From: Selaginella moellendorffii
Taxonomy: Eukaryota; Plantae; Lycopodiophyta
Length of the DNA stretch: 29,236 nucleotides
Direction of reading: 5' to 3'
NCBI RefSeq assembly: GCF_000143415.4
Contig: NW_003314368.1
Location: 545,117 to 574,352 of the forward strand
Under the pieces are notes generated by a model, which was given only the letters and a program-made list of their open reading frames with translations, searched no databases and was not told the DNA's origin. Shown here piece by piece: positions 538 through 29,154 of this stretch; position 1 is the first letter of the stretch; each line of letters begins with the position of its first letter. A program made the translations under genes and the position numbers.

Positions 538-566
538 TCCATTGCTAAGTCTTACTAACTTCCCGG

Positions 567-2171: not shown

Positions 2172-2176
2172 GGTTT
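2169..2176. promoter_or_regulatory. telo-box (TAGGGTTT/AAACCCTA) overlapping the PPR stop and abutting the RNase H ATG
   Basis: Exact motif match; function inferred only. Confidence 0.4.
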
Positions 2177-4440
2177 ATGGGCAAGAACAGGTTCTACGCT
2201 GTGCGCCAAGGCCGCCAGCCGGGAATCTACACATCGTGGATGGAATGCCGGAAACAGGTGGGGATTTTGGAGAGAAATCGTTTCGCGATGCTCATGAGCG
2301 ATGCTTTCCAGGTCGATGGATTCGCCATGGCCGAGTACAAGAGCTTCTCTTTGAAAAGCGAGGCCAAGCTTTATCTTTCATCTCTCCAGCCCCAGCAAAA
2401 CTCTAAGAACAAGGTATTTTCGATCCAAATGTTGCCTAGAGAATGACTTGGGTGGATTTTTTTCTTTTTTTTCCAGCTTGTTCATCTTCTCCAGTATGAT
2501 GGTGCTTCTAAAGGCAATCCTGGAAAAGCTGGTGCTGGAGCATTGCTACGTGATCCGGACGGCTCAGTGGTTTGTAACATTGCGGTCCATGGTATTTGTA
2601 GTTTAAGAATGCGGGAGTTTTGCAGCTCCAGGAGCTGAGAATTGGCCTTGGCACCGCGACGAACAACTTTGCGGAGTATCAGGGACTCATTTTGGGATTG
2701 AAAGGAGCGTTGGCGCAAAACGTTACTCGTATTCGTGTCCAAGGGGACTCCAATCTCGTTTGCAAGCAGGTACGAGTGATGTCAAACAGGCATTTTTTTC
2801 TAAGATTTTGAAGGAAAGGTAGCTGGCATATGGAAAGTAAACAAGGACACTCTCAAGCCATTACACGCAGAAGCGCAATCGCTGTCGAAGAAGTTTACTG
2901 AGTTCACTATAGAGCACGTCGTACGGGTAATTGGTTTTTTGATCTCTTGGTTCAAACAGTAACATACCTTGCAGGAACTCAATAGTGCTGCAGACGATCT
3001 TGCGAATAAGGCCATCGATCTTAAACGTACGTCTCTAATGTTCTTTGCTGCCCTTCACTTACCCGAGATCCCTCAGCGCAAGAGGTTGTGAAAGATGTAA
3101 AATGTATAAAGCTACAGATCTCCGAGCCATCTCATCAGATCACCACTAAGAAAAACAAGAAAGAAGTTACTGAAGAGGTACATGAGTCATCTTATTGGAA
3201 ATAGTCTCATTTTTCCGTGTTATGGCAGTCTGTCTATGTGCTTGCGTACGATGGAGCTTCTAAAGGAAATCCTGGGAAAGCTGGTGCTGGAGCGCTGCTG
3301 CGCAATCCGAAGGGCTCAGTCGTATGCAAAAGCTAATTCCTGTTTCCCTTTCAAACAAGCTAGTCTGCAGATTGAAAAACTGTACATGGGACTAGGCACA
3401 GCGACAAACAATGTTGCAGAGTATGAGGCTCTCATACTCGGACTACAGGCAGCACTCGACCGGAACGTGACTAGCATTCAAGTATTTGGGGATTCCAACC
3501 TCGTTTGCAAGCAGGTATCGTCCATGTTCTAAACTTTAAGCCGTGCGTGACTCGAATTTTCCGAAGGTAGCAGGAGAATGGGCTGTGAGACATGAAGGCT
3601 TGAGAGCATTGCACGCGCAAGTACAGGCTCTTTCGATGCAGTTCACCACGTTCAGTATTCATCACGTTGACAGGGTATTACCTCTTTCTTTCTGGTATTC
3701 TACTCTCAAGTATGACTTAGGAAATGAACACTGAAGCGGACGCACTTGCAAACAAAGGAATCACTTTGCCATGTAGGTCTTCTCTTTAACCTTTCACGCT
3801 GCTAAAGTAATGCTTATATTCAGGCAGGACAATCGTAACGAGACCAACAAGAAAATCACCTCCTCACCAGCAACATCAAGTGGCAGAGTCTTCAACTGAA
3901 ATGAGCGCATTAACTCCTGACACTACAAGTACCGTAGAGGTTGGCAGTGCTGTTGCAAGGAAACTATCCACAAGAAGGAAGACAACGCAAGGGGAGAATG
4001 CGGAGCCTGTTGGACCTGACGCCTCAGATAAAGCTGGTGCAAATGCGAAGAGCCAATCGAAAAGAAACTCTGCAAAAAACATCAACAACAAAACCAACGC
4101 ACAAAACTCCGAGACAATTCAGAGGAAAGTAATGGTTGCAACGAGGACGGAAGCTTTAACACAGCAAACATGCGTTACGAAAAACGTAATGGACGCTGCT
4201 GTTGGGAGGTACGTCACAGTGGACGCAGCGCGCGGTAATCAAGTCCCAAGCAAACCATCGACTACTAAGGTTTCTTACAAGTCATACCACAGCTACTCGA
4301 CAATTTTCTCCAGATTTCCTACGAGGCCCGCGGTAACGTGTTTAATGCTTTATCTACTCCTTGACGTTCACCTTTTGTTTCTTTGTTGTCAAGGCCTGCA
4401 TTTCTGTTTTCAGGAGCCTCTCTACAATTGCAGTGAGTGA
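2177..4440 (+). CDS. Ribonuclease H1: N-terminal hybrid-binding (Cauli_VI-like) domain plus two tandem RNase HI domains and a low-complexity tail
   Basis: Hand-spliced GT-AG exons: 2177-2257, 2312-2413, 2477-2569, 2626-2769, 2819-2926, 2975-3026, 3077-3177, 3229-3321, 3371-3514, 3567-3674, 3721-3772, 3824 onward. The 3' end is uncertain (in-frame stop at 4440). Motifs: FYAVRQGRQPGIYTSW; YDGASKGNPGKAGAG, TNNxAEY, GDSNLVCKQV and N..AD.LAN each occur twice. Confidence 0.9.
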
Positions 4441-5246
4441 CAAACCTGTCTCTTTCTAGCTGAATTATCCTAAACTTTTGGAGTTGTGTCACAGGCTGTC
4501 GCACTAGTGAGGCGCTTTTGACCTCATCCGTTTGAAGGTTTGTGCTTATGCTGTTGTGGAACTGTTTTGATTCCCGTCGATCGTGGCCAGACGGCAGCTC
4601 TCGGTTTTGTATGCATGGCTTGCAGCTCCAGCTTTGTCGTAAGTCGGCTTTGTTTTCGTCACTGTTGGTCTAATCCAATCATGCAGGCCAGTCGTAAGCG
4701 TCCAATTGTTTCCTGTGACCAAGACGAGACCCGAGACCAGCCGCGACAAAAAACATCCGGCATGCCGCACCACAGGTACGGTTTTGAGGAAAAAGGAAGA
4801 AAAAGGGTAACGAGGTCGTGTCGTTGTGGACCCTCTTCAGATCCATGAAATGGACTTGCGAGCTGGACCCTGTTGTGCGTTTCTTTCAAGCAGTTATTTC
4901 GTTGAGTTTTACAGTGCAAGACTTACAGGGACCAGATGGTGAAACATCTAATCACTTGTCTACCTTGAAACCGAAACATTACGATTGCTCGGCCACTAAA
5001 CCATGCCGCTCGATGGATGAGATCACGTTATGACATACGAGACAATGAGCGAAACTTGGAAGACAAACGAAAACTTATATAGTATTATCAAAAGACATTA
5101 TCAAAAGACAAGGACGCGAAAAAACGCGAAATGCCCGAGCAAGGCATCCGAAAGAGGAAGAGCACGGCAAAGAGGACCACCAAAACCAAAAAGAAAAAGA
5201 AAAAGGAACGAACGAGGTACGAGAAAAGTCACTCTTTTCACTTGGC

Positions 5247-5909
5247 TCATGTCTTGCTGATCACTTCTTTCAGATGCTTGATCTCGCCATTGTCAACCTG
5301 GAAGGCAATCTCCAGCACCGCGTCCTCGATCGCCGGCATGGAAGCAAACACCGCCTTGGCAACCTGCGACGCTCCGGCGTTCTGGGACCCGAAAGCCGCG
5401 AGGCCAAACGCAGGAGAATCGCCCACATTGAGCTGGAAGTGGATGAGACCTTTGGGAAACACGAAGCTCTCACCGGCGGAGATGGTCTTGGCGAAGAGCT
5501 TGTTATCGGGGGCAGTGGTGACGAAGCCAACGTAGAGCTTTCCCTCGACCAGGAAGAGCAGCTCGGTGGCTCGCGGGTGGACGTGAGGAGGATTGAGGCC
5601 GCCGGGGGCGTAGTCGACGCGGGCACTGGAGACGCCCAGAGTGTTGAGGCCCGGGAAGCGAGCAGCGTTGGCGGTGGTGACGGCAGATCCCAGCTTGTTG
5701 GAGGTGTTGCCGGGCTTGGCGAGCGCGTTGGAGGAGAAGTGGTCCGGCGTGACCGCGGCACTGGGCAGGCAGACGAAGCCATTCACTTTGATGGTGGAGT
5801 TGACGTCGGCGACGCAGAAGTCCTGGAAGGGATCGGCATCGCCGCGGGCGATTTGGGCGGAGAATGCCGCGAGGATGGACAAGAGGAGCAAGAATTGGGC
5901 TGGAGCCAT
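5247..5909 (-). CDS. Germin-like protein (cupin), secreted
   Basis: 220 aa from ATG 5909: signal peptide MAPAQFLLLLSILAAFSAQIARG, then DPFQDFCVAD and germin boxes GLNPPHVHPRATE and FVFPKGLIHFQ. Intronless. Confidence 0.95.
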   Translation of the reverse strand: MAPAQFLLLLSILAAFSAQIARGDADPFQDFCVADVNSTIKVNGFVCLPSAAVTPDHFSSNALAKPGNTSNKLGSAVTTANAARFPGLNTLGVSSARVDYAPGGLNPPHVHPRATELLFLVEGKLYVGFVTTAPDNKLFAKTISAGESFVFPKGLIHFQLNVGDSPAFGLAAFGSQNAGASQVAKAVFASMPAIEDAVLEIAFQVDNGEIKHLKEVISKT

Positions 5910-6262
5910 ACTTTCCACCGGAGCTCTGGATTTGATGATCTTCCTCTTGGGCAGCGCGCGATGGATCCCTAGGAGACCTCTGGCGGTGTGAGGCCGTGAA
6001 GGGGAATTTATTTGAGCGGTGGGCATGGTGTCGCGAGACGGAGCTGGGTTTTAAAAATCAGATTTTTAATCGCAATCTCTCCACAGTGTTTGATCTTCTA
6101 CACTAGTGTCAATCGCCCGAAGAAACAGAGACTGCCATTAGCGCTACCTACCTTTTAGAAACTTTTTACCGCAAGCGAAAATGATGAGGTGGCTTTGTGA
6201 CTAAGCAAGATCTGGTCCACCTCAGCAACTTCAATGGCCACGTAAGCTTACACTTGGGAGTT

Positions 6263-6270
6263 TAGGGTTT
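6263..6270. promoter_or_regulatory. telo-box 9 bp upstream of the PPAT ATG
   Basis: TAGGGTTT exact match. Confidence 0.4.
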
Positions 6271-6279
6271 GATTGGGCG

Positions 6280-7118
6280 ATGGTGCTCGCCGTCACGAAG
6301 GATGGCGCGTATGCTGCCGTGGTTCTGGGCGGCACGTTTGATCGGCTCCACGGCGGCCACAAGATGCTCTTGAAGGTGAGCCAGCGAATTTTGCTAGCCG
6401 TGGTGTGGAAATCGGATCAGGGCTTGGGTTTTTGTCCAAGGCAGCGGCAGAGCTCGCGCGCGAGAGGGTTGTGGTGGGGATCAGCGATGGGCCAATGCTA
6501 GAGAACAAAGAGGTAAGATTTACTCCATTCTCTTCTCTCGTCTCATCTGCTATTTAATCTATCTTTTTTTTTTTCGTTTTGCTCTTGCGCTAGTTCGCGC
6601 ATTTGATCGAGCCTTACGAGAAGAGGAGCAATGCAGTCAAGGAGTTTATCAAGGTCCAGTCTTCTTGCTACATTTCTCATGGCTAACTTACTTCGTTTGT
6701 TTTTTCTTTCGTGTTTTTCGTCCTCTTTGCAGTCTGTGAAGCCGGATCTAGAAGTCCAAACTGAGCCAATACATGACCCGTATGGTCCATCCATAGTCGA
6801 CGAGGCACTCGAGGCCATTGTTGTAAGGTACAAGACGACGCTTTCGTTTTGTGTTATATCTCGTAAAACTGTACCTTTTTGTGTCTTTGCGTTTGTGTTT
6901 TCTCGGTATTCAGTCAAGAGACTCTGGGCGGAGGACTTGCTGTCAATAAGAAACGAGCTGAACGAGGCCTTTCCCAACTCAAGGCTAGTACAAATCTTTT
7001 CTGGGTTTTCCATGACGAGATTTGTCAGCAGGTTGAAGTCGTGGATCTGTTCATACTAGATGGAGGCGCGGAGAAACTGAGCTCCACGTTTCTGAGAAAG
7101 TTAGAAGCGGAGGCATAG
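6280..7118 (+). CDS. COAD: Phosphopantetheine adenylyltransferase (plant/archaeal type), 159 aa
   Basis: Exons 6280-6375, 6441-6512, 6594-6653, 6733-6827, 6914-6983, 7032-7118. Motifs [14 protein letters not shown] (HxGH), [38 protein letters not shown]. Confidence 0.93.
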
Positions 7119-7541
7119 CATTTACCATGATATCTGTTTTCTCTCATCGCTCGAGAGAACAAAATAAAAAATAAAAAGGTTTCAGTGACTTGTTTGCTAT
7201 CAAACTTCTGGGAAGGTGCAAATTATGATTCTGCTGAAACATAGAAACGCTTCTAAACACTCAAGGACTTGCCAGAGTTTTAAGTTGTCACCAATGAAAA
7301 CGAAACTGACACCCTTTGCTCACATACATAGCCTGTAAGTAGACTTGCCATTGATCCAGATTTTCTTCCTTGAGTACAGATTTCTTCTGGACTAAAGTTT
7401 ACTTCTGAGATTTTTGGTCACTTAAGAGTGTACATACGCACTCAACTTGAGTACATGTAAGGGAATGATGAAGTGGCTTTCATCTGTGACCACATTAACT
7501 TTATTGTATAGTAAAAGAACATTTAATCTAGATACCTAAAC

Positions 7542-7546
<5 letters not shown>

Positions 7547-7630
<84 letters not shown>
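7547..7630. repeat. (TA)42 microsatellite
   Basis: Perfect TA run. Confidence 0.98.
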
Positions 7631-7632
<2 letters not shown>

Positions 7633-8240
7633 GTTAAATTTTATTTATAAAAACACAGATTTTCTCCTCCAGCCGTCATAGAGCTTGTGAAGCAGAAAAC
7701 ATTCCTGGACGAGGCAGCTGCTGATGGCAAGGATGATCTTTCCTGGGAAGAGGCTGTGGAGCTTGCAAGTCAGCTGTATTATACTTATTTATTCATTTAA
7801 TTAGTACTTTATTTATTTATATAAGAAACACAAGTTCATAACTAAATAAAAAAGTATGTATAATTTTAGATTTATATATTTACTATTGTAATTTTTCTTA
7901 TTATAAATCTTTGTTTAACTTATAAGACTGAAGGTGTTGATGTTGATTGTATGAATAACGATTAGGAAAAACTTATGAGTTGTTGTCTATATGTTTATTA
8001 TAATAAGTATGGAAGAAAAGTAAATATTTTTATTGATTTGTTATTTCAAGAAGAAATTGATCCAATACTATCCTAGATATTTTAATTTTCTTATAAATCT
8101 GGTACAATACCAACTTATAGTATTTCCAGGTTTAGCAAAATATGTAAAAAAATGTGATTGGTCATTTATAGGTTGCTATCAGCATATAAATCATATTACT
8201 GTTGAATTTTTTTCTTTTGAATCCATTAAATAAAACTCTC

Positions 8241-8244
<4 letters not shown>

Positions 8245-8292
<48 letters not shown>
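8245..8292. repeat. (TA)24 microsatellite
   Basis: Perfect TA run. Confidence 0.98.
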
Positions 8293-8296
<4 letters not shown>

Positions 8297-9689
8297 TAAC
8301 ATATTAAATCATTTCACTATTAAATCAGTTTCTTAACAACCTATATCCAAGAAATTTATTAATAACTATAAAACAATTAAAAAACAAAATATTTAAAGAC
8401 CCTGAGAAGAGCAACTGTAAAATATACTGAACTATAATGTATTTTATTAAATCAAGTGAAAACTTAGAACATAGTAAAAGCATATAAAAAAATTAACCCT
8501 ATAAGCATATAATATAGGGATTCAGTCAATTAACATGGGTTTTTCTTCTAGTTAAACACTAATGATTTTAAATGTATAATCAGAATAATGAATATACAAT
8601 ATGCTATGGTGATTATAGTGATTGTATGACTATAGACTGTGCTACTTGTGAACTCATTTTTTACTTTCTGTTTTTTAGCCTTTAACATCTTTAGTGAGCT
8701 CTTTTTTATGAGAAATTCTTTGCTTAACTTAAATTCTGTAATTATTTTATAATTAGTGTTTTGATCCAAGAAATATTTAAGATGAACCTAAACAAGGAAT
8801 TTGTATCTAATCCTTTTTATCGAAGCCATACCATCCTAGATATTAAAAAGACCTCATAGTGCAAATATCAGCCTAGCAATGCTTTTCCAGCCTTTTGACA
8901 ATATAGATTAGTTTCTTTCTACTTCTTAGCAGCAATGTCATGTCAAGTAAAGAGCCACTAACAAGTGAGATATAAAATAAGTGCATGAACATCCAGCTTG
9001 CAATGCATTATAGATGCTGATATATGATCTTTGAAACACAGGTACTTTGGATATTATGGTAAATATACACTATTGATATAAAAAAGACCCAACAGATGGC
9101 AGTGGTTAGATTTATTACTCTAAAATACACTTAAATAATGTTGAACTAATTATCCTTTATTATTCCCTATTTATTATTCTCCAAATGAGATTTTTATAAT
9201 TTAAAAATCCCCTACACTCACTTCTAGCCTTTGGTGAAGGTCAAGCAAAATGTTTATGAACTTGCACATCTAGAGAAGAATTGGGAAGAGCTCTTGGCTG
9301 AGTTTATACAAATTGAGCACAAAATTCAACATACAAGGTCTTCAAAGTAAGAAACTAGTATGCAAAGTTTTCAAAGTGGCTAGAGACTATAATAGAAATT
9401 TCTGTTCATGAATATAAGTTTCTTATTGCATGCTTTATTTTTCTCAATCACACATATGTTTCTTTTGCAATGAACAAAAATCCAAATGACATGATTTATA
9501 ATATTGCAAAATTGAGGCTTCTATACAAGTAATAAATAGAAACTCTAGAGTTTCTCAATATTTTCTTGATGAACAGAAAGAAAAGATTGCTAAAAGTATT
9601 TGAGAATATAATGAGAAGGGTTGTTTACATCACATAAACTATAGGTGAAGGTGAGAAGTTCTTGGCACTGCATATTGGTGATGATTTAG

Positions 9690-10277
9690 TGTAAACAATT
9701 AAATTTTCCATTTTACTTTAATCACTTAATCACATCTCCAACCACTTGGAGGAATAATCTTTACAAGTCTTATTTTGGACTTGACTTGTTAGCCTTATAA
9801 ATGGCATATATGCCATTTAACCTTTGCACTTGTTATAAATGCTCCACATATCTGATCCTATGATCAACCCCCCAAATATACTATCGACATATCAACCTAT
9901 TACACTAAGGCCATATTTATTTACCCTTGCCTTATTAGTAATCCTAGACCACCCGTGCTATAGTCCTATCCCTCAAAGACTAGGCCATCCATCCATGAGT
10001 GGTCATCTCAAAACTACTCCTTAGCATTTTTAAGAGACCTAGAGACATAAGGAATAATCTTCTCCAACATCCCTTTTTTGATCCTCACCAAATCCCACTC
10101 CATCCTCGGCTATATTTGCCAACACTATTATTGGGCTAGGGCTTGAAGGCTCAACCACTACGTCCTATTGACTTCCAAGACTTCCTTGCTATATCACTAT
10201 ATCCTTAGTCATTACATAGGAAGACTACTCCTCTTCCTTTCCACAGTCTGGGATTTTGGGATAACATTTCAGAATAC
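9690..10277 (-). mobile_element. Old LTR, 3' half (solo or 3' LTR), interrupted by the DNA transposon
   Basis: Collinear with the reverse complement of ~24077-24675 (tgtaaacaattaaattttccattttactttaatcacttaa vs tgtaatcgactaatttttccattctactttagtcacttaa). Ends in CA on the minus strand with no PBS beyond it. Confidence 0.85.
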
Positions 10278-10281
10278 TATA

Positions 10282-10305
10282 AAGCTCTATTTTGTTAAAG
10301 TGGGA
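10282..10305 (+). repeat. Left TIR AAGCTCTATTTTGTTAAAGTGGGA (TSD TATA at 10278-10281)
   Basis: Reverse complement of 22670-22693 with one mismatch. Confidence 0.92.
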
Positions 10306-10744
10306 ATTGTCATTATCCCACTTGTAAAATAAGGTTTCCAAACCTTTATATAGTATATAAATATAACAAAATTCAACTGCATTGAGGCACATGCCATTTT
10401 ATTTTAAACAAGGAAATGTCTACTCAATCACTTCTCCTCCCCCTGCCACTGCTTCACCTCTCTCTTCTCCTTGTCATCGTCGTCCAATTTCTTTCCATCC
10501 TTTTAATATTGGCTCAGTTGCTCCGAGTCTAGGTGGAGCCCAAGTCCCCATTCAATCTTTACTTTCCCATTATTAATAAAACAACTTCGTAGACTTCCAA
10601 TAACATACTGTAACACTTCTAGTATAATGCAAATCCTCTCAAAGAATTGTCTTTTAATATTAATACAATGGCATGGAACCCCATGCCATAATAAGTTACA
10701 TTTTTAAATAAATACATGCCATCTCAGACTGTTATTTTTTGCCT

Positions 10745-13700
10745 CTAACGCCTATACAATAATCTTGAAATTTCATCACTCTCCACACTATCAGGATTTA
10801 AACCCAATAGTAATGCCATCTCTTCTCTAATACGTCCACGCTCATGTTCAGTGGTCGAAGAACCCATCCGGTTGAGCAGATTATGGAGATGCGGATAGTG
10901 CTTGGCTAGACAATATACATGCCATAAATGATGACTGGTGTCTGTCCGATCAAATGGCTTCTGATATACCGTTCCATCTGCCATTTGGTTGATTTCTGCA
11001 GCCACCTCCTGGACTGGCCGGTTCTCTATCACCATCGCTCCAAGCCGTTTTGCAAGGTCCCCCAGAACATACGGTTTCTTCTCCCTAGTTTCCATACTGC
11101 AAGAGATGGGGTGCACTGCATATGTGTGCGTGTTCGCTGCAGTTTTAATCGGCGAGTCATCGATGATGAGGATTTCACTTGAGCTAGCAGTCTGGTTCAT
11201 CACTATAGCCTCTGGCTTGACGAAGATGGGCTTGCTACCCCTCACATGGACCATAGTCAAGCAATCCTCCTGCGTTAGGAGAAAGTCAAATGGTAATATT
11301 ACTCGCGTCTGATCGTGCATCATCTGTAGCAACGTTAATGCATTGTGGCGCATCATGGATGTCCAAACTCCCAATTGCAAATTGAACCCGGCCCTCTGTT
11401 TTAAGTGTCGCATGGTCATTATTAGATCCCGCAGTTTCTCCCGTGTGATTAATGTGAATCTGTCTCTTTTGACCAACTTGCGACCGCAGGCTTTGGAGGG
11501 TGCAATGACATTCGAGGACGAGCCACGCTCATGGGAGAAAAGGACACCATTCAGATAAAAAACGATACAGTACCTTCGCCGTGACTCTGAAATGAAGTGC
11601 GTCAGCATAAAAAATGGTACAAGTCAATTTTACCATCTACAATATTAGCGAATGTTGCTCCCGATGGTCGTTGAGAGGGTTTTGGTTGAGGAAATGTGAA
11701 GGGCGGAAATACTCTCCTCTGCAATGTGGGGTCAATTGCATCCGATGGCGTGTGGGCACATGCCATTTCAGCTGTAGACTCTGGTACAACTGGCTCAATA
11801 GTGGCATGGGGTGGTTCCGATGGCATGTGATCACACGCCATTTCAGCTGGTGCCTCCGTTGGCAAAGTGGACATGACCGAACAGGCAGCAGGGGCGGTGT
11901 AGGGAGGTTCCAACGGCGCGTAGTCAGACGATTGGGCACACGTTGAGTCCGTTGGAAATGAGGATACGACCGGCTCGGCGGCTGGGGCGGCCTCATGTGG
12001 GTCCAATGGCGCTTGGTCACCGTCAGGATGATACATGGACAAGATTGACTCAGTGGTATGGGCAGCATCAAGTGGAGCGTGGTCAGCTTGCTTGGCGTTG
12101 ATATGGATAGTAGCCTCCACCAGCTCTGATGACTCTTGCAGCCAAGTAGAGTCCACTGGCGGATCCATATGCATGTCCAAATATCTCCCTTCGATTGAGA
12201 TGGTATCCTCCCGTGCTACTAAAAACAAACTCATTAGCACATTGAATCGACTATACTGTATTTACCATCAACTGCTATTGAGGAACTAGGACCGATATCA
12301 CTTGAGCGCACTGCTGATTCTGAAGGATTGGACATACGTTTCGACCCTTGCTTGGCACTATCCTTCCTCGACACTAAAGGCTAGAGTTTGTAAATTCAAC
12401 TGAATAATCTCTACTTACCATTTGCTCTGCGACCTACATGGACAATGTTAGAAATGGTAAAAGGTTAGGAATGGATGTATTATTATTTACCTGATGGTTT
12501 GTCTTGTATGACCTTCCTCCGCCGCTCTTTGGCCACCTCAGGCTGGCCATCGTCGTCATCATCGTCGTCGTCGTTATTGTGATCGTCACCATTGTGAGGA
12601 CCATCCAAGTCCTCTTCGTCCTCCTCTTCTTTGTCCTCCTCTTCGTCCTTCTGCTCTTCCTGCTCATTATCTTTCTCTGGCTCCTCATCCCCCTCCTGCA
12701 TTTCTTCCATAAGCTGCTCAGGCTGGATGGCTTGTTCTTCCAGGACCATCTTGGGAAAATCATCTGGCCGAGTCTCCATCTCAAAATACAAGACATCCAT
12801 AGCCTGTTTTAGTGCGTGACCTAGGACCGTATCCTCACCCGACTGTGTTAACATGGTTTCTGCACGTTCTTGCACCCTTCGAAGACGATGAGATGAGAAA
12901 AACGTGGCCCTGCCTTGAAAAGCTTCCCTCATCCATTGTACCTCTCCATTGAGATTGGGGAAGGGGAGTCCGCCATAGGAATCTGAGTCATGAGGTGGTG
13001 ACTGCCTGCTTTCACTCAGCCCTTGATTTGCAATGAATGGCATGAGCACACACGCCATAACCGCGAGGCATTACCTATCATCTTTTCGTTGCCCTTCTTC
13101 CTTTTCGAATCAAACGCCTCTGATCTCGATGACTGTCCAACGTGCTTTCGCTTTTTATGACCACTGTCAGTTTGAGCTTAGCTGGTGCTTGCCTGTTTTG
13201 CCTTTGAAGAAGTTTCTCCTGCAAGGAATGGCATGAGACCACACGCCATTGCAAATATAATTTGTACCTCCTTTTTTCCTATTGCTTTTCTGTTTGTCCT
13301 TCTTCGATGTGCCACCAGTGCGCTTTTCAGTCCTCGTGTCTGAATATTCACAACGATCTATAATCAAAATGGCGTGAGGCCTCACGTGACCTTACCTTGT
13401 GCAGGTTGTGAGCTCGGCCCAACATGGGTATCTTCAACAGTAGCTGTTAACGCCGTTTCAGCATCTGGGGGTGGCCACGCTCCTGCATACAGAGCTTGTG
13501 AGATAACATTTAAACTTAAAGTGCGTACTCACCAGGTTCGCAGAGAAGATACTGTTTTTCTTTGGCAACTGTAATTATATGCTCCATTGAAGTCACCTCT
13601 TCAATGGAGTTTGTCACCGCAACACACGGGACACCCTTGAGTAGTGTGGCTCAAAAGAATAGTCCACCGCAGTTGTACTCGACAACGCATTTGCCCTTGG

Positions 13701-16053
13701 AGTCGGAAGCAGGTGACCCACCCGCTATTGCGTTGAAGACCCAGCTGAGCATTTCCCATGCTGCACCTGGAGCTTTCTTTGGATTCGAAAGCTCCATAGC
13801 CGTCTTCAGTTCCTCAGGCACGGGTAAATTGACCTCCCTCAGATCAATTCGATTGGCCTTGTCGAACGAAGCTGGGAAGTCACTCCAGTCCCACTCTGCT
13901 GCAGGACCAATAACAAGGGCGAGTGTGAAGATGCGGACATTCGTCGGTATCTTCTTCTTAGCCATTATCCCATGGATCTCCCGCATCTCCTTGCCTTTCA
14001 ACCGAGCCTTCACCTCGTTCAAGGCCTTCTAGAACTTGTGATAGGATTCGGAGTCGTAGATCATATAGTGGACTGAAGATTCCACCTCCGCAAGTCCCAC
14101 CATTAAGTCAATGATGGAGCTGACTTCGTCTGCATGAGTGATCTCCTCGTTTGTGAAGTCCATCACACAAAAGATGTTCTTGACCTGCTCATCTCCGCGG
14201 GAAACGATGCTCCTCCACCTTTGATCCTCATCCGAATTCAAGTATACCCGGTAAGGTTCTCGATAGGCCTCTGCTGCGGGGTCGAGCTGTTTCTGAAGCC
14301 GGCGGTCGACATCAATCTTAATGAAATTTGGATACTGATCCAACTTCTCAGCTTTACTTTTCGTGGCATCCCGCAGCAGATCGATGAACTTGGGGGCCCC
14401 CTTCACGTACTCGTCGATGTCTTCATTTGACAACTCCAGCGCTTCCATCATCTCTTGCGTGGTGTTGATGCTCACCCTCTCCACGGCCACTTGCTCGAAG
14501 ATCCAATCCTTCAATAGCGCACGAGCTCTCAGAGTCATGCACAAGTCCTCGTATGTCACAATATGGCCGGGAGTCATTTTGGTCTTGTTGAAGACAACCT
14601 CACCACGTAGAAGAGCATTAGCCACTGTCAGAAGGTCGTCGTCGTCTAGAGACCGCGAGAAACGCAAGGCGTTGAGCTTCAAATCATTGGGCTTCCGGCC
14701 GTCCTCCACACCCATTGAGTTTGGCAACTCCCCGTCATGGTACCTCCTCAGCACATCTACCCATTTGTCAAAAACAACTTTTGTCGCGAGTAGAATGTTA
14801 TGGATGCTGAGTGTGTCATTGACCCCCAGTGTTTTCGAGAGAAGACTCGAGAATTCCTGCAATGGAAATGGCGTGAGGCCACATGCTATGCCACATACAA
14901 CGAGGCTTACCTGCCAGGCGCTAGTTGCTAGTGCACGTCCTTGTCCTGGTTTTTGTGGCTTCTTCAGTTGAACCCAGAGCTTCCGTGTTCGTGCCAATGT
15001 CTCGTGCAGACCAGATTTGTAGCACGTTTCTTGCTTGACATTCTGCGCGTGGGAGATGTATATGATAGATCGGAGGGGCGAGTTGCCTTTTATCAGGCGG
15101 ACAACTCTTGTCTTGAAGACTTTCTTCACCTCCTCGCCCACCATAATATCCACAACTATCTCTTGCATCGCCAAGCTAGAATGCTGCCCGGAGACGGCAT
15201 AGAACCGGATGTTCTGATCGTCCAACACCTTCCTATTGATCAAGTCTGGAAACCTCATCTCGCCCTTCATTTTTTGGTAGTAGGGGATCACGTCTGCGAT
15301 GTCGGGTGTTACTGGACTTGCCAGCATCTTCTGCTTCAATTTCTCCACCCACTCATCAGATACTAGCCTGTGGTTGTATTTGCTTTGGATGTCGATACGG
15401 CTCACGTCGATTGTATATACTTTGTTGGAATAGTAACAAGTACTATTATCTGCGACGATTTTTGCTGCCTCTTCTTGCTCTTTCTGCTCTTTGCGGCTCT
15501 TCTTTTTGGTGGGTGTAGTGTTCGAACCCGAGGCAATGGCATCACTGAGTAGCTTCTTTTTTGGAGCAGGAGAGTCAGACGTCGGCTTGAGCTTGACCAC
15601 CCTTTTCTGCTTCGAGGTAGTTTCCAGATCGACCCCCTTCCCCTTTGCTTCGCGAACTGGAGTCACTCTCAACGGCTCAATGTTGGAATATAGTTTTTGA
15701 ACATCGCCGTAGGTGAGGTCCGTGGATTCCATGTGATCTTCATAGACCCGCAGCGTCTTTGAAATTGTGGGCCTCCTGGACAACCTCTCCCTAGCTCCCT
15801 CTAGGAATTCCTCATAGCCGCTGCCCCCCTTCGGGAAGCCGCTAGGATGTGCAAGGTGGATCTTGAAGGCAGACGCTGTCTCTACCACAAGTGCCAGTCC
15901 ATATTCTTGCATGGAACTGCATGGAGTGTCTGTCACTTGGATGAGGATCCCCATGCATTCTTTTCTCCCACCATCTGTGTTGTACAGCCTCAGATCCTCG
16001 CCTTCCATCCCGAAAGTCCAACTGGTGAGCTCCTCCCCCTTCTCTGCATCCAT
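10745..16053 (-). pseudogene. Transposon accessory gene, ~1622 codons: ParB-like domain, DNA amino-methyltransferase-like fold, basic/acidic/Pro-rich linker, FCP1/NIF HAD phosphatase-like domain; 3 premature stops
   Basis: Exons 16053-14911, 14856-13533, 13482-13396, 13357(or 13339)-13268, 13218-13075, 13021-12491, 12433-12419, 12373-12266, 12218-11634, 11586-10745. All junctions are GT-AG and phase-consistent. Stops at 14029-14031, 13651-13653 and 13178-13180. Confidence 0.8.
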
Positions 16054-16533
16054 ATTGACAGTGGCTAGAAGAAGAACGCAATTCCTCGCCTGTTCAGAAA
16101 TGCACAACAATTAGAGCTGACAGATGAAAAGCTAGTAGCTGGAAATAACGTGAGGCCACACGCCATTCACCACTGCATCAGATGTCTTGAGGCTGCATCC
16201 TAAGATGGCGTGAGGCTACACGCCATCTGTAACCGAACTGCACTCGAGAGCCCAATCGGTGCATGCCAATGTTGCTACTGAATGGCATGTGGCCTCATGC
16301 CATTTTCTACTTGGCCTAAAAGACTTACCATTTGAAGCCGAATGGAGGTGTGACAACCGGACTCGCTGGCGAATGTGCACTGTGTGTGCAGCGGATCGTA
16401 GCAGCAAGGCTACTCTGCCACTTACAGTTGGAGAGTGGCGCTGAAATCTCCCGGGACGCCAAGTGGGCTGCGTGTGGGTGGCGGAGTGGGCGGCGGAGTT
16501 GGCGGCGAAGTTACAAACTGGGTGTGTCTTGAA

Positions 16534-16735
16534 GTGGACGCCGATGCACACGAGCACGATGCGAGCGCGATGCGAGCGCGAGTGTGATGCAAGCGCGAGT
16601 GGACGCCGATGCACACGAGAAACCTGTAGAGAAGTGGGAGCGCGAGTGGGAGCGCGATGCGAGCGCGAGTAGGAGCGCGATGCGAACGCGAGTGGGAGCG
16701 CGATGCGAGCGCGAGTGTGCGAGCGCGAGTACGAA
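16534..16735. repeat. CpG-rich degenerate tandem repeat (GCGAGCGCGAT / GGGAGCGCGAGT units)
   Basis: Visible 11-12-bp units plus a 21-bp direct repeat gtggacgccgatgcacacgag. Confidence 0.85.
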
Positions 16736-17048
16736 GCAAAATGCAAAACCTAACCTCACACGCGCGAAATGTCACGACGGTTGGTAATCCCGCCACGTCA
16801 TCATTTTTCGGACTTGGGCGCCACCATTAATTTCTGGATCGGCGCACGCATGCGTGAAATCCAAAAGAAATCCGCAACGTCATCATTCCTCGGACTGCAT
16901 ACACGCGAAATCCAAAAGAAAGATCATGATTGGGATATCATTTAATACCCTCGCTATATTTATACCATGCATGATTGGATATTCCAAAGCATCTTGTATT
17001 TCCAAAAATGCCAGTGTTCAGCTAAATAAATTGTCAGAGGATGACGTT

Positions 17049-18084
17049 CAAGCATGTGGGCTCATGCAATTTTGATCCCAAAAAATGCACCAAAAAATGC
17101 TCGGCGTCATCTGGCGTTATCTCTTGAATGGCGTGGGGCCGCATGCCATTTTCAGGAGCACATAGGAGTATATTCCTAGAATATTCTGACACGCGCGAGA
17201 TTGTTTTGAGTTTCCTGGAGATCCAACCGTTAGATCGCAACTAGATTTTACAGAATGGTATACAATGTCCTTCTTGATGACCCTGCAAAGAAGCATCTCG
17301 ATCGGACACCACATGAGACCACACGAGCCTTACAATGTTTCAGGGGCATTTGCCATAGATCCGACCGTTATTTTGCTCCAAGATTCTACAGTTTGGTGTG
17401 CATTAACCTTTCCATCGACACTGCAAAGGGACATCACAATCAGATGCGGGATCACAAGAAACCAACTTCACTAACTCTGGTTTCACCAAGATCTACGTAA
17501 GGAGTTATGAAATGAAAGGACCCTCTCTATTGAAATGTGTTTATGGTCCTAGGGGCATTGTGACATATCCAAGGATTTTGCATCAAGTTCTGTATTTGCA
17601 TGTTTATCAAGCTACTGAATTGCTAAACCCTAAACCCTAAACCCTAACCCTAAACATGTGGCAAATGCTGCGTGAAGAAAGATGCCCTTTCTGGGCAAAT
17701 GCTGTAAGAGGCAGATTCCGAGCAGATGTATCTCAGGCCAGCGAAGGGGACAAACGAAAGCTAGCTATAAACATGACGGGATGCAAATAGATTACTAGGC
17801 TGGTCCTGCGAAAATCAAAAACCATAATTGAAAACATTGAAAATGCAAAAAGAAAGGTTTATAATATTTTTGAATTTTAAGCAACCAAATGAATGTAAGT
17901 AGGGCATGTGTTTGTAAGTTTAAAAATGCCTCAACCACTTAAATTCCCAAGTAAATAAAGCTGTTTCTATTTTTGGTACAGGTAAACTTTATAGCGTGTG
18001 GGCTCATGCAATTTTGAACCCAAAAATGCACCAAAAAATGCTCGACTAGCATTATTCTTTGAATGGCGTGTGGCCTTATATTGC
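17049..18084 (+). repeat. ~90-100-bp direct repeat pair (17049-17149 and 17991-18084), each bounded by palindrome copies
   Basis: gggctcatgcaattttga.cccaaaaa(a)tgcaccaaaaaatgctcg...ttgaatggcgtg.ggcc occurs in both. Confidence 0.85.
17623..17655 (+). repeat. Interstitial plant telomeric repeat (CCCTAAA, ~4.5 units)
   Basis: ctaaaccctaaaccctaaaccctaaccctaaac. Confidence 0.9.
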
Positions 18085-18455
18085 CATAAATGGACGTACA
18101 CACACAGCATAATTATTCCTTTACATGGCGAATAATCTTGGCGCGGATCGCTGACATGGCATGGCAAAGTTCGAATCACTGACATGGCACAGCTGGATCG
18201 AGGCAAGGACATGATGTGACAAAGTTCAACCTCCGACAGCAAAGTCTAGAAGCTACTCAGTTTGAAATTTGTCAGAGGAATCATAAGATCTGGTTTGTCA
18301 GAGGATTTGATGTGACGTTCAAGCGTGTGTTATTTTTGAATTCTCGAACTCATTCCTAGGTCTATCATTTTTGTGCGCCGTGTTCTTGGTTCCGCTGAGC
18401 GCAGTGAGCGCTGCTTGTGTAAGCGGCGTTGTGAGCTGTGGTTTATGCGTCTACA

Positions 18456-18585
18456 AGCGGTTGCGGCATTGCGAGCGCCATTGCGAGCGGCAGTTTATGC
18501 GAGTGGCAGTTTGTGCGAGCGGCGCTACGAGCAATTGCGGTGTTGCGAGCGGCACTACGAGTAGTTGCGGTGTTGCAAGCGGCAC
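18456..18585. repeat. CpG-rich degenerate tandem repeat (TTGCGAGCGGC-containing units)
   Basis: Repeated gcgagcggca and ttgcggtgttgcg units, including a ~30-bp tandem. Confidence 0.8.
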
Positions 18586-18940
18586 CGTCTTTGGTGTGGC
18601 TACCGCTTCCTCTTGATATTCGGCACTTGTGCTTCCTGGTATGTTCACCATGGAATGGTTTAGGACCACATTTAGAAATGGCATGAGGCCACATGCCATC
18701 TTGGGCCCTTGCAATTTCATGGCTAGCGTATTGTCATGTATGTTTTTACTTGCCTGCAGCTGTGTGTATATCAAGATGGCATGAGGCCTCATGCCAATTT
18801 TGTGAATGCAAAATTTCACGTGGGTGTCAATAGCATGTTTGAATAATGGCATGTGGCCTCATGTTATTTGGTATGTTATGATTTAGGCCATTCTCCAATC
18901 ATTTTTTGTATGGTCTTAACTTCTTTTCTGCACTTTCAGA

Positions 18941-21900
18941 ATGGCCTTTAGGGTTGGGGAAAAGGTTTACATTTTGAATGGTGGGAAGAGAGTTGCAAAA
19001 GGGACCCTTGTGTCTATGGATCGGAACTTTGTTATACACTGTCAAAGGCTTGGGGAAGGCAATGCTGCTGTATCAGTAGAGACTGTCTTCGATGGGAATG
19101 TGGTCGCTATTGAACGAGGAGAGATGGTCGTCGGGGTAAATGTTGTTGTTGCCTTGAAAAATCTGCAGAAGAAAGCAGATGTTGGGGACAGCGCAAGTGC
19201 GACGCATGTTCCCTCCGTGGATCTTAAGAACCGTGCTACATGGATTCAGGCAAAGGTGTTTCTAAACAACCCCGAGGGGGAGGTGGTAGCTGAGGGCTTA
19301 GCCACAGTTGTCGATCCAAGAAATGCGGTTGCTAATCAAGAATTGGGCTGGGATGATATTGGAGTTGCAATTTTAGAGGTTGTTGACACAGAAGAAAACA
19401 GTCTGACTATTGGAAGCATTGTGCGGTGGAAATTGAGGCATTTAGTGTTTGAGAATGTGAAGGATTCACAATCAAACACCACTACAACTGATGACAGAAC
19501 ATCTCTTCATGGGAAAAGAAAGTACACCTTCCTACAGCGCAGCCAAAGGGATCTGAGCAACGAACCGAAAAGGCAGAAAATGGTGATGGACGTTCGAATG
19601 GTCTCGACAGTTGCTTGTTGCAAGAGGAGGTGCTGTCAACATGCTGATTGGGATGCTATTGAAGAGGAGAGAGCAAGATACAAGACATTGTCCTGGAAGG
19701 CAGCTCGCAATTTTGTGTATGAGGCATTACGGTCATCTGTTGATGCTTCAGAACATCAGGTGGGGGGCATGGTCTTCTAGAGGGGTTTGGTCTACATGAA
19801 GGCATGGAGAATCATTTATGGAGTCCCTCGAACCACATTCTACAGAATCAAAACTGAGTTCGAGGAACAAAGGGTTGAAAAGGCAGTCCATGGGAACGAC
19901 GGTACGCACAAAACCAGGGGTCATGTTGTATATGGAGAGGCAATCTTCAAGAGGTTTGTCGAGACATGTAGCGAGCAGCAACCACATAAAACCCGCCTCT
20001 TGGAAGATGGAACACGAGACACCCAACGAGTTCTCCCTTCCATGTATACCAAGGGGGCCATATTGGAAGATGTGAATCGGGAACTCCAGAGTAATGGCTA
20101 CAGGAAGCTGAGCCAATCTAGATTTAGTAGATTGTGGAGCAACAGGTTTAGGGATGTGAGTATAGGAAAGTACTCCAGCTTTTCAAAGTGTGACGAGTGC
20201 ACTGCTATCAAAATGGCTTTGTCGAAGAATTCTTGCAGCGCTCAAGAGCGAGAGACGTTGGTTAGAAGGCGGCTCGACCACAACATCGAGCAGAGAAGCT
20301 GCAGGACTGCATATTATCATAACAGGATTCTCTCCATGGAGAGACCTGACTCTTACCTCTGCATCATCCACGACAAAATGGACCAGAAAAAGACGTGCTT
20401 ACCTCGACTCAATCCTGCCCCCAAGGCAATCTCTTCATCCATGCAGCTGCCTGTGTCTCTGTTTGGCATAATCGCTCATGGGCATGGTGCCCAGAACTAT
20501 GGGAACTTCTTTGTACCTCTATGGGGTGGCGGGGGTGCAAACATGATGATTGCGTCCCTAGCAAAACACTTAAGGTCTCTGCAAAGTGCGCAGACTGAGC
20601 TGAACGGCCAACCCTTGCATAAGGCCCTTGTCGATCGAACCCCATACAGGGTTCAGCTGGAGGAGGAGCAAAGGCTTGCAGTATCGCGTGGGGCCCCATG
20701 CCATCCCAGTGAATATGTTGGCCGTCAGATTGTAGGGTTATCACGTGAGGCCTCATGCCATTCCGACGAGGCTGGTCGCCCGGTGAATGCACACTCATCC
20801 AAACGAAGCAGAATCTCAAGGAAGTTCTTGCGGCCGATGTGGCCTTCCACCCCATCTTCTGCTCCAAACAGACAATGCTGGCAGTGAGAACAAAAACATG
20901 TACGTCTTCGCGTACTTGGCGATGCTTGTTGCCAAAGGCATATTTGAAACGGTTACACTTGGCTTTCTCATGGTTGGGCACACTCATGAAGACGTCGATG
21001 CCATGTTTAGTCACCTGGCAGAGTCCCTCCGGCGATCCAATGTCCTCACCCTCCCACAATTCTACGATGAATTCCAAAATTGCATCAAAGGCACTGTTGA
21101 AGCTGCACTTGTGATAGAGGTTCCAGACTTTAAGGGGTTTGTAAGAGGCTACATCAGGGACGGATCCGAAACGCTGATTGGCCACTCCAAGCCTCTTCAG
21201 TTTCATTTCAGCATGCGTGACGGTGCTCCAGTGATGAGGTACAAGATGAGAGAATGGGACACAGTGTGGCTGCCAGTGGACGGCATTGAACTCTTCAAGA
21301 GAGATCCCATAACTGGGGAACCTATGATTCCTCAGGGTTCCCCACGGCCGATGCACCCGGATGGACTCAAAGACCAGGAAAGTATAGTGGCCGGGATTAG
21401 ACAGCATATTGCCTTCTGGAAGAGGGGGTTGGTGTTTGGTGGAGAATCCTATTTTCAGAGGTGCAAGCCTTTGCTCGAATACTGGGAGAAGATTATATCT
21501 GCTATCCAAAATGGGCCGGTTGTATATGAAGAATTGGAAGAGTCCTTTTGGCCAGAACCCAGAGCACCAGATAGTAGCGGAACAATGTCCTCTGGAAATG
21601 CAGTGACAGATAACGATGTTGAGGATCACTATTGTGGGCCGAGGAACAAGAAGCCGGATTCAGCATTCAATCCAGTACAAGTCTGCAAAGGAATGGTCGT
21701 GCTTGTCAGACCCAGTAATAAAAAACAAATGATATGGGTGGGGCGCTGCATCACTGATGCAGAGGAGGACGCGGAAACTAACTCCTTCAATGTAACTATG
21801 GAGTGGTTCAAGCCAAGTTCCGGATATACGAAGGATTGCCTAGAAAAGAGATGGGTGCTGAATCCAAGGGATCCCAGCATGAGCATATCGGTGGATAATG

Positions 21901-22077
21901 TTGTGCATGGTTGGATGCGGAAGCAGAGTGCCACCATCACCTTGCCAGACCATGCAAGAGATGCAGCAAGAGCATTCATAACCCGGGTTCAAGGTGAGAT
22001 TTAATATTCCTTTACTAAGTTTCTAATGTATTTTATTTCAAGGTGAACAATCCGAATCTGAATCAGAGGAGGCGTGA
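18941..22077 (+). pseudogene. Sola-like DDD transposase (disrupted), with two N-terminal beta-barrel repeats and a C-terminal BAH/Tudor-like barrel
   Basis: ORFs 18941-19780 and 19787-20887 share a frame, separated by one TAG. A frame change (frameshift or intron) in ~20680-20850 leads into ORF 20787-22004, with a probable last exon at 22043-22077. Motifs CDEC...H, CIIHDKMDQKK, LLLQTDNAGSENKN, GFLMVGHTHEDVDAMFS. Confidence 0.82.
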
Positions 22078-22669
22078 TGGCATGTGGCCCTTTGCACTAG
22101 TATATCTTAATACTGGTCTGAGAAATAGAATGGCATGTGCCCTCAGGCCTTTTACTAAATCACCTTTGAAAGAAATGCAAGCCTCTATGTCGTAAAAAAA
22201 AGGTACTAGAGAAATTCCTTAATAATATGAATGTTATTTAGTTTCATGAAAATACACTAAGGGTCAAATGAGTTAAATGACTTCTCCAGACTAGCAATGC
22301 CTCTTGCTACACCTTCACAATTAGATTCGTTAGAAAAAGATAACATTGAATAATATCTAAATGTTCTCACCATTAAGTTATATGTCTGGCTAATAGGAAT
22401 GACATTCATCTTGGAAAGCTCACCACACGCTCAATGAACAAACAAATAGTGTGTGCGCGCATGCCATCGCTCTTCTTTAGCTTCAGATTCGGCTTGTTCA
22501 CCTTGACAATGAGATTTATTATACAACCAGATGGACTCAGTCTGGACACAAAGTCACCGCGCTAGTCACCATGCCCCAGATATGTCTAGCCCCTAGACAA
22601 AAAACATATAATTTCACGTCATTTTCAAATACTTGAAAATTTGTACCTAGTCCCATTTTACTGAATAAA

Positions 22670-22693
22670 TCCCACTTTAACGAAATAGAGCTT
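22670..22693 (-). repeat. Right TIR (TSD TATA at 22694-22697)
   Basis: tcccactttaacgaaatagagctt. Confidence 0.92.
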
Positions 22694-22697
22694 TATA

Positions 22698-23280
22698 ACC
22701 TTATGCAAGCCTTGTAAGTACTCTCCCCACCTTCCACCTTTAGGTCCTTAGCTATGTGGCTAGAGTGAAGTTTCAATGAGCCATGCAAAGTATCCAAGTA
22801 GGTAATGCCACCCACACTTGGATTGAGAGCATTGACCATTCGATCTTCTACGGGAGCTAGAGCAAGCTTTTGAACACTTCACCAAAATACCTTATTTATC
22901 CATCTTTATTAACTCTAACCTTGAACTCTTTAGTGGTTATATTATCACCCACTATATGAGTATAGCATTCCTTGGTCACACTGGCCTTTCTTGGCCAAAC
23001 TGGCTCTACTGGAGTCTTCCCCTTACTATACTTTTGGAGCTCACCAAGGTTTGGGAGACAATCGCTTTAGGCTTTCACCCTCGGACTTGGACTTGGATTT
23101 GGACTTAGACTTGGACTTAGTCTTGGACTTGGTCTCAAACTCGGTCTTAGACTTAGTCTTGGAGTCGGTCTCAAAGTTGATCTTGGACTTAAATTTGGTC
23201 TCAGTCTCAATCTTAGTCTCGATTTCAATCTCTTTCTCAGTCTCGGTCTCTTTCTCAACCTTGACCTCAAACTCCATCTC
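22698..23280 (-). mobile_element. Old LTR, upstream half (continuation of 9690-10277), 5'-truncated in the hexamer array
   Basis: Reverse complement of ~23480-24073 (e.g. ctatacttttggagctcacca vs tggtgagctccaaaagtatag). Confidence 0.87.
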
Positions 23281-23675
23281 AAGTAGTCCGAGATGGACCG
23301 AGATGGAGTCCGAGATGGAGTCCCAAATGGACCCGAGATGGAGTCTGAGATGGAGTTCGAAATGGACCCGAGATGGAGTCTGAGATGGACCGAGATAGTG
23401 TCCGAAATGGAGTCTGAGATGGACCCAGATGGAGTCCGAGATGGAGCTTGAGATGGACCCAAAATGGAGTCTGAGAAGGACCCGAGATGGAGTTCGAAGT
23501 CGAGACCAAGACCGGGACCGAGACCGAGACCGGGACCGAGACTGAGACCAGGACCGAGACTAAGACCGAGGCCAAGGCCGAGACCGAGCCCAAGCACGAG
23601 TCTGAGTCCGAGTCCAAGTCTGAGTCCGAGTTCGAGTCCGAGTCCGAGTCCGAGTTCGAGTTCGAGTTCAAGTCT
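23080..23675. repeat. Two opposed degenerate hexamer arrays (GAGTCC/GAGACC/GAGATG), switching strand at ~23281-23287
   Basis: GACTTG/GTCTCA units on the left; GAGTCC/GAGACC units on the right. Confidence 0.9.
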
Positions 23676-24675: not shown

Positions 24676-24678
24676 ATT

Positions 24679-24690
24679 TGGTATCGGAGC
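24679..24690 (+). other. Primer-binding site, tRNA-iMet type (TGGTATCGGAGC)
   Basis: 11/12 match to the canonical TGGTATCAGAGC, 3 nt after the LTR end. Confidence 0.85.
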
Positions 24691-28716: not shown

Positions 28717-28728
28717 GGGTGGTGGAGT
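28717..28728 (+). other. Putative polypurine tract
   Basis: gggtggtggagt directly before TGTGAG, in a gypsy-like ttcga..gac..gaacttt context. Confidence 0.5.
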
Positions 28729-29154
28729 TGTGAGACACAAATCCCTAAGCCCCAAAGTGGAGCCAAAAAGGTGCCATGTGGTAGTGGCTGAAGCGAAAGC
28801 CAAACGAGCGTAATACGTTTGGACTAAAAGGCTCCAACTTGAAAGGTCAAGAGCAGGAGTGGAACTCCCAATGGAGTACTTGTAAGGAACCAACTCGCCG
28901 AGGTGTCGTAGGCTAAAGGAACCCCAAAAGCATGACCAAAATGACAAAGAGTTCATCGGATGGGACCAAGTCGAAGATCGAGTCCAAAACCGACTCTAGG
29001 ACCGAGTTCGAGATAGAGTCCGGAATCAAGTCCGAGACCGACTCGGGACCGAGTTCGAGTCCGAGTTCGAGACCGAGTTCGAGATGGAGTCCGAGATCCA
29101 AAATCGGGTCCGAGACACGAGTCCGAGGTCAAGTCCGAGGTCGCGTCCGAGGGT
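28729..29154 (+). repeat. Start of putative 3' LTR with hexamer array (~28960-29150), truncated
   Basis: Same GAGTCC/GAGACC array. It ends in ccgagggt like the other copies, then diverges. Confidence 0.6.

Follow-up and report, generated by a model that had tools for sequence, protein, structure and literature searches.

A 22-bp palindrome repeated across a Selaginella DNA transposon, enriched in the introns of its accessory gene and possibly read by a predicted ParB-fold protein

Sequence-specific self-recognition by transposons has been worked out only for VANDAL and Spm elements of flowering plants. In Arabidopsis VANDAL, the motifs bound by the VANC protein are family-specific and lie in introns and elsewhere in the non-coding sequence of the element (PMC5735166), and the spread of VANC effects over the whole element is stated as an open question (PMC10398659). 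We describe a 12,412-bp DNA transposon (10282-22693) of the lycophyte Selaginella moellendorffii, which carries two divergent genes, a DUF7869 transposase-like gene and an accessory gene, and sits within the long terminal repeat (LTR) of a retrotransposon. It lies in a stretch of 29,236 nucleotides (GCF_000143415.4, contig NW_003314368.1, 545,117 to 574,352), hereafter the window, from whose first nucleotide all positions are counted. The transposon is studded with copies of a 22-bp palindrome, ATGGCRTGNGGCCNCAYGCCAT, which are enriched in introns and may be docking sites for the accessory protein.

At up to 6 mismatches the window holds 25 matches to the palindrome, 24 of them within the transposon; the lone outside match (27153, 4 mismatches) lies in decayed LTR retrotransposon sequence. 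Strict copies (at most 4 mismatches) number 20 in the transposon, compared with 1 match in 30 shuffles, and the statement in a preliminary description that the host-gene introns at 2177-7118 lack the motif holds, the best match there, and in the whole of 1-10281, having 7 mismatches. Density per kb falls from introns (11.9; 8 copies) to other non-coding DNA (3.2; 12 copies) and coding sequence (0.5; 4 copies), with introns denser even than the other non-coding DNA (P = 0.006); in the coding span of the accessory gene, small introns amounting to 434 bases hold 4 of 6 copies (P ~6e-4). Outside introns, two copies are subterminal at the left end (10376..10689; a poor copy at 10376 and one at 10668), seven lie between the genes (17049..18867; 17049, 17128, 17991, 18063, 18678, 18776 and 18846) and three at the right end (22077..22467; 22077, 22130 and 22446). 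The coding copies at 11745 and 11820 (11745..11841), 75 bp apart, do fall in a Pro-rich linker of the accessory gene as first described, at about residues 1287-1319, and two further ones (20683..20761; 20683 and 20740), beyond that description, lie in a length-variable insert of the transposase. In the transposase homologue P0013, the variable insert (residues ~100-200) repeats a TPRG-like peptide, encodable by a palindromic DNA word, as is done by the copies at 20683 and 20740. Across 23 copies (253 pairs) identity is 0.74 in the core versus 0.30 in the flanks; in 250 of the 253 the core is kept between flanks that show no relation. The spacer is invariably 6 nt, and the central GGCC, which could not pair in a hairpin, is symmetric and conserved (G in 43 and 33 of 46 half-sites). 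The palindrome is unrelated in sequence to the terminal inverted repeat (TIR), and its copies, mostly dispersed along the transposon, fall into ten clusters with gaps of no more than 1.84 kb (post hoc P = 0.026). By analogy with the anatomy of operators and parS, this pattern of conservation suggests a two-fold symmetric protein site.

The element resembles VANDAL with VANC in joining a DNA transposon to an accessory gene (PMC5735166, PMC10398659) and in a family-specific short motif that is concentrated in non-coding parts (introns, intergenic and terminal sequence in VANDAL) and differs between related families. VANC motifs are 8-9 bp long, non-palindromic and in tandem, whereas here a 22-bp palindrome is mostly dispersed and lies over predicted branch points, with a tandem arrangement in one related locus (L015). 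Binding and demethylation have been demonstrated for VANC, whereas the accessory protein here is known from its sequence and predicted fold, which is of the ParB type. The transposase also differs: its Pfam matches include DUF7869 and no MULE (Mutator-like) family, so the transposon is not a VANDAL member despite its apparently similar working. The transposase-like gene (18942..22004, plus strand; PF25273, E 4e-39) is broken by a stop near 19780 and a frameshift near 20793, a position where other copies differ from the window. Of its 44 homologues, those with a named source come from liverworts. Its N-terminus is weakly similar to TNP1/En/Spm (PF03017, E 0.007, below cut-off), a likeness to Spm/CACTA elements. 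Hallmarks of the latter are CACTA termini and a 3-bp duplication, unlike the present element, which ends in AAGCTC, shows a 4-bp duplication and carries its sites across gene bodies and not only at the ends. Like TnpA of Spm/CACTA, the putative reader here would recognise family-specific clustered motifs (10.64898/2026.08.24.746577). In the literature covered, with Repbase and subscription journals outside its scope, DUF7869 elements were nowhere described as having family-specific palindromes or an accessory gene of ParB fold, and the relevant passages of a further preprint (10.64898/2026.05.21.726589) concern retrotransposons only.

The accessory gene (10745..16331, minus strand) was modelled with 11 exons, 10 introns and 1,635 codons, including three premature stops (14029, 13651 and 13178); nine introns are small (38-57 nt) and the first has 239 nt. 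Four small introns, all on the minus strand like the gene, carry one palindrome each: intron 2 (14857..14910, 54 nt, phase 0; palindrome 14868-14889), intron 4 (13358..13395, 38 nt; 13369-13390), intron 5 (13219..13267, 49 nt; 13228-13249) and intron 6 (13022..13074, 53 nt here; 13037-13058). Introns 3 (13483..13532), 7 (12434..12490), 8 (12374..12418, whose boundaries are less certain, alternatives keeping the frame), 9 (12219..12265) and 10 (11587..11633) are without palindrome, and an alternative acceptor of intron 4 at 13340 (56 nt) is likewise in frame. The preliminary description had named the four segments as introns, each about half filled by its palindrome, and this agrees with their GT...AG ends on the minus strand and with measured palindrome shares of 41-58%. 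Its count of nine coding-region introns matches the nine small ones of the model, and its tally of intronic copies had to be enlarged to 8 of 24, as intron 1 (16090..16328) adds three good copies (16145, 16205 and 16282) and a poor one (16182). For intron 6 the proposed donor was retained and the acceptor probably shifts to 13028 (47 nt), both ends keeping the frame: in contigs of runs X1 and X2 position 13028 is a C, making the acceptor TTGCAG as in two sister introns, so that 13028-13074 is probably the intron of the family.

That the palindrome-bearing segments are spliced introns is supported by their branch motifs, by reading frame and phase and, at the 54-nt intron, by spliced homologues. 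The lengths of three of the four are not multiples of 3, and their removal is needed for the reading frame. The 54-nt intron is in frame and without a stop; its peptide is missing in 5 of 5 homologues annotated across the junction (P0045, P0050, P0054, P0056 and P0064), 9 of 10 further homologues stop shortly past this point, as expected of frames read on unspliced DNA, and two Selaginella annotations show a two-residue difference exactly at the junction. Since this junction is common to homologues, the intron position predates the palindrome. No splice joint over any intron was found in contigs of X11, X12, X20 and X1; in the three RNA runs sampled (about 12 in 100 of each) the body of the accessory gene is essentially uncovered and no joint appeared. 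Downstream of the 54-nt intron all eight introns (11587-13532) are in phase 1, which makes every exon of this disordered region symmetric, so that exon skipping or duplication could occur without a frame shift. A 40-bp stretch immediately before the accessory start codon (16389-16428) draws more than 100 reads per RNA run, continuing into unrelated sequence on both sides; it resembles what we take to be a piece of the large ribosomal RNA 3' end, which is absent from the Rfam matches.

The register of the palindromes within the small introns is constant: all four stop 9-11 nt short of the acceptor in the same polarity. On the sense strand the downstream arm reads CTCAY in all four (CTCAC with the A at -18 in introns 2 and 4; CTCAT with the A at -16 in introns 5 and 6, counted from 13028 for the latter), where it is the only match to the branch-point consensus YTNAY at a usable distance from the acceptor. 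The five palindrome-free small introns have a YTNAY of their own (A at -15 to -18), and the sense 3' arm contains YTNAY in 4 of 4 small-intron copies compared with 5 of 14 other genic copies (P = 0.04, post hoc). It is thus likely, judging by these motifs, that one palindrome arm doubles as the intron branch point, which would explain the common polarity and register of the intronic copies; a DNA site overlapping the branch point of 38-54-nt introns would be a compact double code.

A candidate reader is offered by the accessory protein. A full HMMER search with it gave 20 matches (E 6e-10 to 8e-4); two of these, P0047 and P0049, proved to be repeat artefacts and were excluded from all accessory alignments, leaving 18 homologues; word-based protein searches and a first metagenome scan had returned none. 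Named homologues come from Selaginella, Riccia and Calypogeia, the closest being from S. moellendorffii. A structural model built from 29 sequences has a mean predicted local distance difference test (pLDDT) score of 66 (69-95 in blocks, first 160 residues; below 50 at 488-596), compared with 32 for single-sequence folding, and predicts a ParB/sulfiredoxin-fold domain (15025..15444, minus strand), in which SGQHS replaces the GxxR motif, followed by a helical domain (14521..15024, minus strand) loosely like the central DNA-binding domain of ParB, Noc and KorB (root-mean-square deviation, rmsd, ~5 Å over 200 residues) and interrupted by the 54-nt intron. Foldseek ranks Noc, ParB and KorB first (best E 2.3e-3), and a structural aligner gives Z 10.5 for ParB 7bm8 (rmsd 2.5 Å, 98 aligned) and Z 9.6 for the two-domain alignment to pNOB8 ParB (rmsd 5.0 Å, 215 aligned); the two-domain alignments to KorB and pNOB8 ParB together span rmsd 4.9-5.0 Å over 201-215 residues. 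A wide structural search returned PadC at Z 9.5, and a Riccia homologue matches ParB clusters in the Atlas. The protein is therefore predicted, on the strength of the model, to have a ParB fold and a ParB-like helical domain, although no Pfam family matched its core, HTH_ParB was not among its Pfam matches, and PDB sequence searches and PHROGs gave nothing significant.

Further along the protein lie a putative, degenerate N6/N4-methyltransferase-like region (13534..14265, minus strand), proposed from a weak pairwise match and from the Pfam match of a homologue in a part where the model is unreliable (pLDDT below 50), and a possible FCP1/NIF-like HAD domain (10748..11586, minus strand; PF03031, E 5.3e-4, below cut-off). 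N6/N4 methyltransferases are marked by catalytic DPPY-type and S-adenosylmethionine-binding motifs, of which the region shows no more than a degenerate Gly motif and, where the strand is expected to end, an Asp. The Riccia homologue P0081 has the same domain order, with PF01555 at E 5.8e-4 (below cut-off) and an FCP1-like match at E 1.9e-5 (above cut-off). The FCP1-like motif has Tyr at its first acidic position (11557) here, where the X1 contig has Asp, and Asn at its second in both. Annotated S. moellendorffii genes (P0045 and P0065-P0067) are N-terminally truncated relatives with the helical and methyltransferase-like parts only, possibly a domesticated copy. Through P0056, an Atlas feature search connected the accessory family with DUF3723 clusters of fungi (score 0.94); if DUF3723 is, as we assume, a Starship-element gene, this would add a second case of a ParB-like gene in a mobile element of eukaryotes.

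The predicted ParB fold, the ParB-like helical domain and several dispersed palindromic sites recall bacterial ParB, Noc and KorB with their parS-type palindromes, and the combination of ParB fold and methyltransferase-like region recalls phage fusions of ParB with N6/N4 methyltransferases (PMC12704722); fusions of another form occur in chlorophytes and chytrids (PMC4738411). Unlike the bacterial and phage proteins, this one is encoded by a eukaryotic intron-rich gene in a cut-and-paste-type element and has an additional FCP1-like domain. Further differences are that Ser or Thr takes the place of the GxxR arginine, the methyltransferase motifs look degenerate, and neither of the transposon's two long genes matches a ParA family.

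We next consider relatives: of 219 metagenome loci encoding a related transposase, the 80 best were taken, on contigs that are mostly short. Nine of the 80 hold at least three copies of a ~20-bp palindrome, different in sequence at each locus, compared with 0 of 884 shuffles; six of them were inspected (L062, L070, L015, L067, L005 and L002) and L018 and L051 were not. In L062, a distant relative, all six palindromes fall within two GT-AG introns (P = 7.5e-5) whose removal gives a frame free of stops. Of the palindromes in L070, one is in an internal intron and three are upstream; those of L015 lie behind a donor and upstream, with tandem units at this locus, and in L005 and L002 they lie upstream of long open frames, while the palindrome family of L076 is a coding tandem repeat. 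The intronic bias on which the preliminary description had staked its proposal thus recurs in L062, with intronic copies in L070 and L015 as well. Six close transposase loci yielded no TIR pair.

Our preferred reading is that the palindromes are an element-wide signature, docking sites for the ParB-like accessory protein that within genes persist mainly in introns, a reading to which we give about an even chance. That a dimer encoded by the element reads them is probable, with the accessory protein standing at evens for this role and the transposase well below. In the proposed mechanism, the accessory protein would dock on the palindromes as double-stranded DNA, the ten clusters would let it recognise the whole transposon, and introns, or tolerant protein loops where introns are absent, would carry the sites within genes. 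Such family-specific self-recognition would keep copies active, or render them so, in the face of methylation silencing, in the manner of VANC and TnpA, and by this analogy escape from silencing, specific to the family, is the likely purpose of the palindromes. Of the two explanations put forward at the outset, introns that house DNA sites without coding cost are favoured by the intron bias here and in L062, and the DNA-site idea gains further from a conserved sequence with a 6-nt spacer and central GGCC amid unrelated flanks and from the predicted ParB-fold reader. A bolder version, in which the transposon took over a bacterial or phage ParB-parS-like module that loads on the palindromes, spreads, marks self and shields from methylation, with protein and palindrome co-changing between families, is speculative and rather unlikely. 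A separate early-land-plant transposon lineage whose long palindromic sites have a candidate reader of ParB fold would amount to an independent solution to self-recognition, and family-specific protein-palindrome pairs are a possible source of orthogonal DNA-binding parts.

Several observations weigh against the preferred reading. The GxxR arginine is absent in all 15 sequences covering the phosphate motif (SGQHS, DGQHT, SGAHS), and it is required for nucleotide binding in the ParB-fold proteins tested in PMC12704722, which makes a cytidine triphosphate clamp doubtful. The Foldseek search with the accessory model gave no match at E below 0.001, the helical domain aligns at only ~5 Å, and the accessory gene is essentially uncovered in the three RNA runs. 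Depletion from exons is expected for any repeat, and the spacing test of the clusters was post hoc. Among the relatives, 71 of 80 loci, mostly short and coding, have no palindrome family of at least three members, L067 has 12 palindromes upstream and none in its internal intron, and no accessory homologue was found in any of the 80, palindrome-bearing ones included, most contigs being short.

The last point leads to a rival, since without an accessory homologue in these loci the transposase could be the reader. The palindromes would then be DNA sites bound by the transposase or part of it, for transpososome assembly or copy activation, much as TnpA is paired with the subterminal repeats of Spm, and relatives found by their transposase indeed carry palindromes beside and within its gene on contigs without an accessory homologue; the below-cut-off PF03017 match at the N-terminus points the same way, as does a preprint presenting transposases as sequence-specific activators (10.64898/2026.08.24.746577). 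We nevertheless regard this as fairly unlikely, because most of the relatives' contigs could not accommodate a second gene, the palindromes share no sequence relation with the TIR and are missing from the ~40-bp ends of a deletion derivative described below, and the transposon itself encodes a predicted ParB-fold protein. Still less likely is that the palindrome is a repeat without function, multiplied through gene conversion or duplication nearby and surviving where exons do not purge it. This view would account for copies in duplicated units (the 75-bp pair 11745/11820 and the tandem units in L015), for the similar 3' ends of three introns and, with no function required, for exon depletion, but not for a core kept amid unrelated flanks, for the fixed spacer, for the intronic excess over other non-coding DNA, or for the same design in different sequences in distant relatives; coding loops, moreover, tolerate copies.

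The second explanation in the preliminary description, pre-mRNA hairpins that regulate splicing, here taken to act on the accessory gene by hiding the branch point, fares worse and is very improbable. What stands of it is that introns 13219 and 13022 fold their palindrome on the sense strand into an 8-bp stem (z -2.5 and -1.9 against shuffles) that pairs the predicted branch A, and that non-Watson-Crick pairs in the palindromes lean towards sense-strand G-U (11 vs 5; P ~0.1, not significant). Against this, 14857 folds no better than shuffles (z 0.1), the stem of 13358 does not come from the palindrome (z -1.2), the palindrome-free intron 13483 also pairs its branch A, 16 of 24 copies lie outside the accessory-gene introns altogether, most being outside the four small ones, and the sequence is conserved beyond pairing. 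An Rfam scan found no structured RNA family at the introns and one chance-level match elsewhere (E 0.85), and no mirtron-type long hairpin spans any of the four. We consider it least probable of all that palindrome-bearing units made the introns by insertion or duplication, in the manner of Introners, whose hallmark is near-identical whole introns at new positions. The shared polarity and acceptor distance, the TCMTTGCAG-like end of three introns and the eight consecutive phase-1 introns fit such a gain, but intron lengths and 5' parts differ, there is no flanking duplication, and the 54-nt intron sits at a junction of spliced liverwort and Selaginella homologues, so that its position predates the palindrome; this argument covers the 54-nt intron, the three downstream ones being in a region without alignable homologues. 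An Introner-type element was accordingly rejected, the introns being unlike outside the palindrome and the 54-nt position common to homologues.

The transposon is bounded by 24-bp TIRs (10282..10305, plus strand, and 22670..22693, minus strand) identical at 23 of 24 bases. The halves of the interrupted LTR align to an intact copy at 23722-24675, and a net 4-bp duplication of TATA is the sole model that aligns gap-free to that copy, among four target-duplication models that scored similarly. TIRs, the 4-bp target duplication and presence in early land plants are shared with Sola, a superfamily of DNA transposons that the transposase motifs presumably resemble. The element differs in its 12.4-kb length with a second gene and, at this single site, in its TATA target, the Sola1 target being AWWT (PMC3845634). 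A Physcomitrella Sola1 is listed in PMC9033089; on the evidence of PMC9033089, PMC3845634, PMC4455052, PMC5751038 and PMC3985635, assignment to Sola is tentative.

Runs X1 and X2 behave as DNA, and X2 covers the whole length of the transposon (30/30 bins). Of 100 differences between the window copy and X2, 68 are A>G or T>C, indicating that the window copy decayed through C-to-T change, and observed/expected CpG is 0.71 in the transposon vs 0.99 in host genes; this shows methylation-type decay, which speaks for the preferred reading, and both transposon genes are broken in the window copy. One X2 contig joins 10323 to 22650, corresponding to a short non-autonomous derivative with ~40 bp per end and no palindrome. 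X2 joints at 17156-17964 and 17014-17252 indicate that the spacer between the genes differs in length among copies. Within this spacer, the palindrome pairs 17049-17149 and 17991-18084 lie ~940 bp apart in similar sequence, and 17626-17658 is a short telomere-type (TAAACCC)n repeat, a possible telo-box.

The transposon is flanked by nested decayed LTR retrotransposon sequence (9690-10277 and 22698-29236), comprising the split LTR, an inverted second LTR and 12-bp tandem arrays. Host genes occupy 549-7118, among them, by Pfam, a PPR gene (549-2171) and a germin-like gene on the minus strand near 5250-5900; an RNase H-like gene and a nucleotidyltransferase-like gene were recognised in the same region by eye only. 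Host introns in the window are compact.

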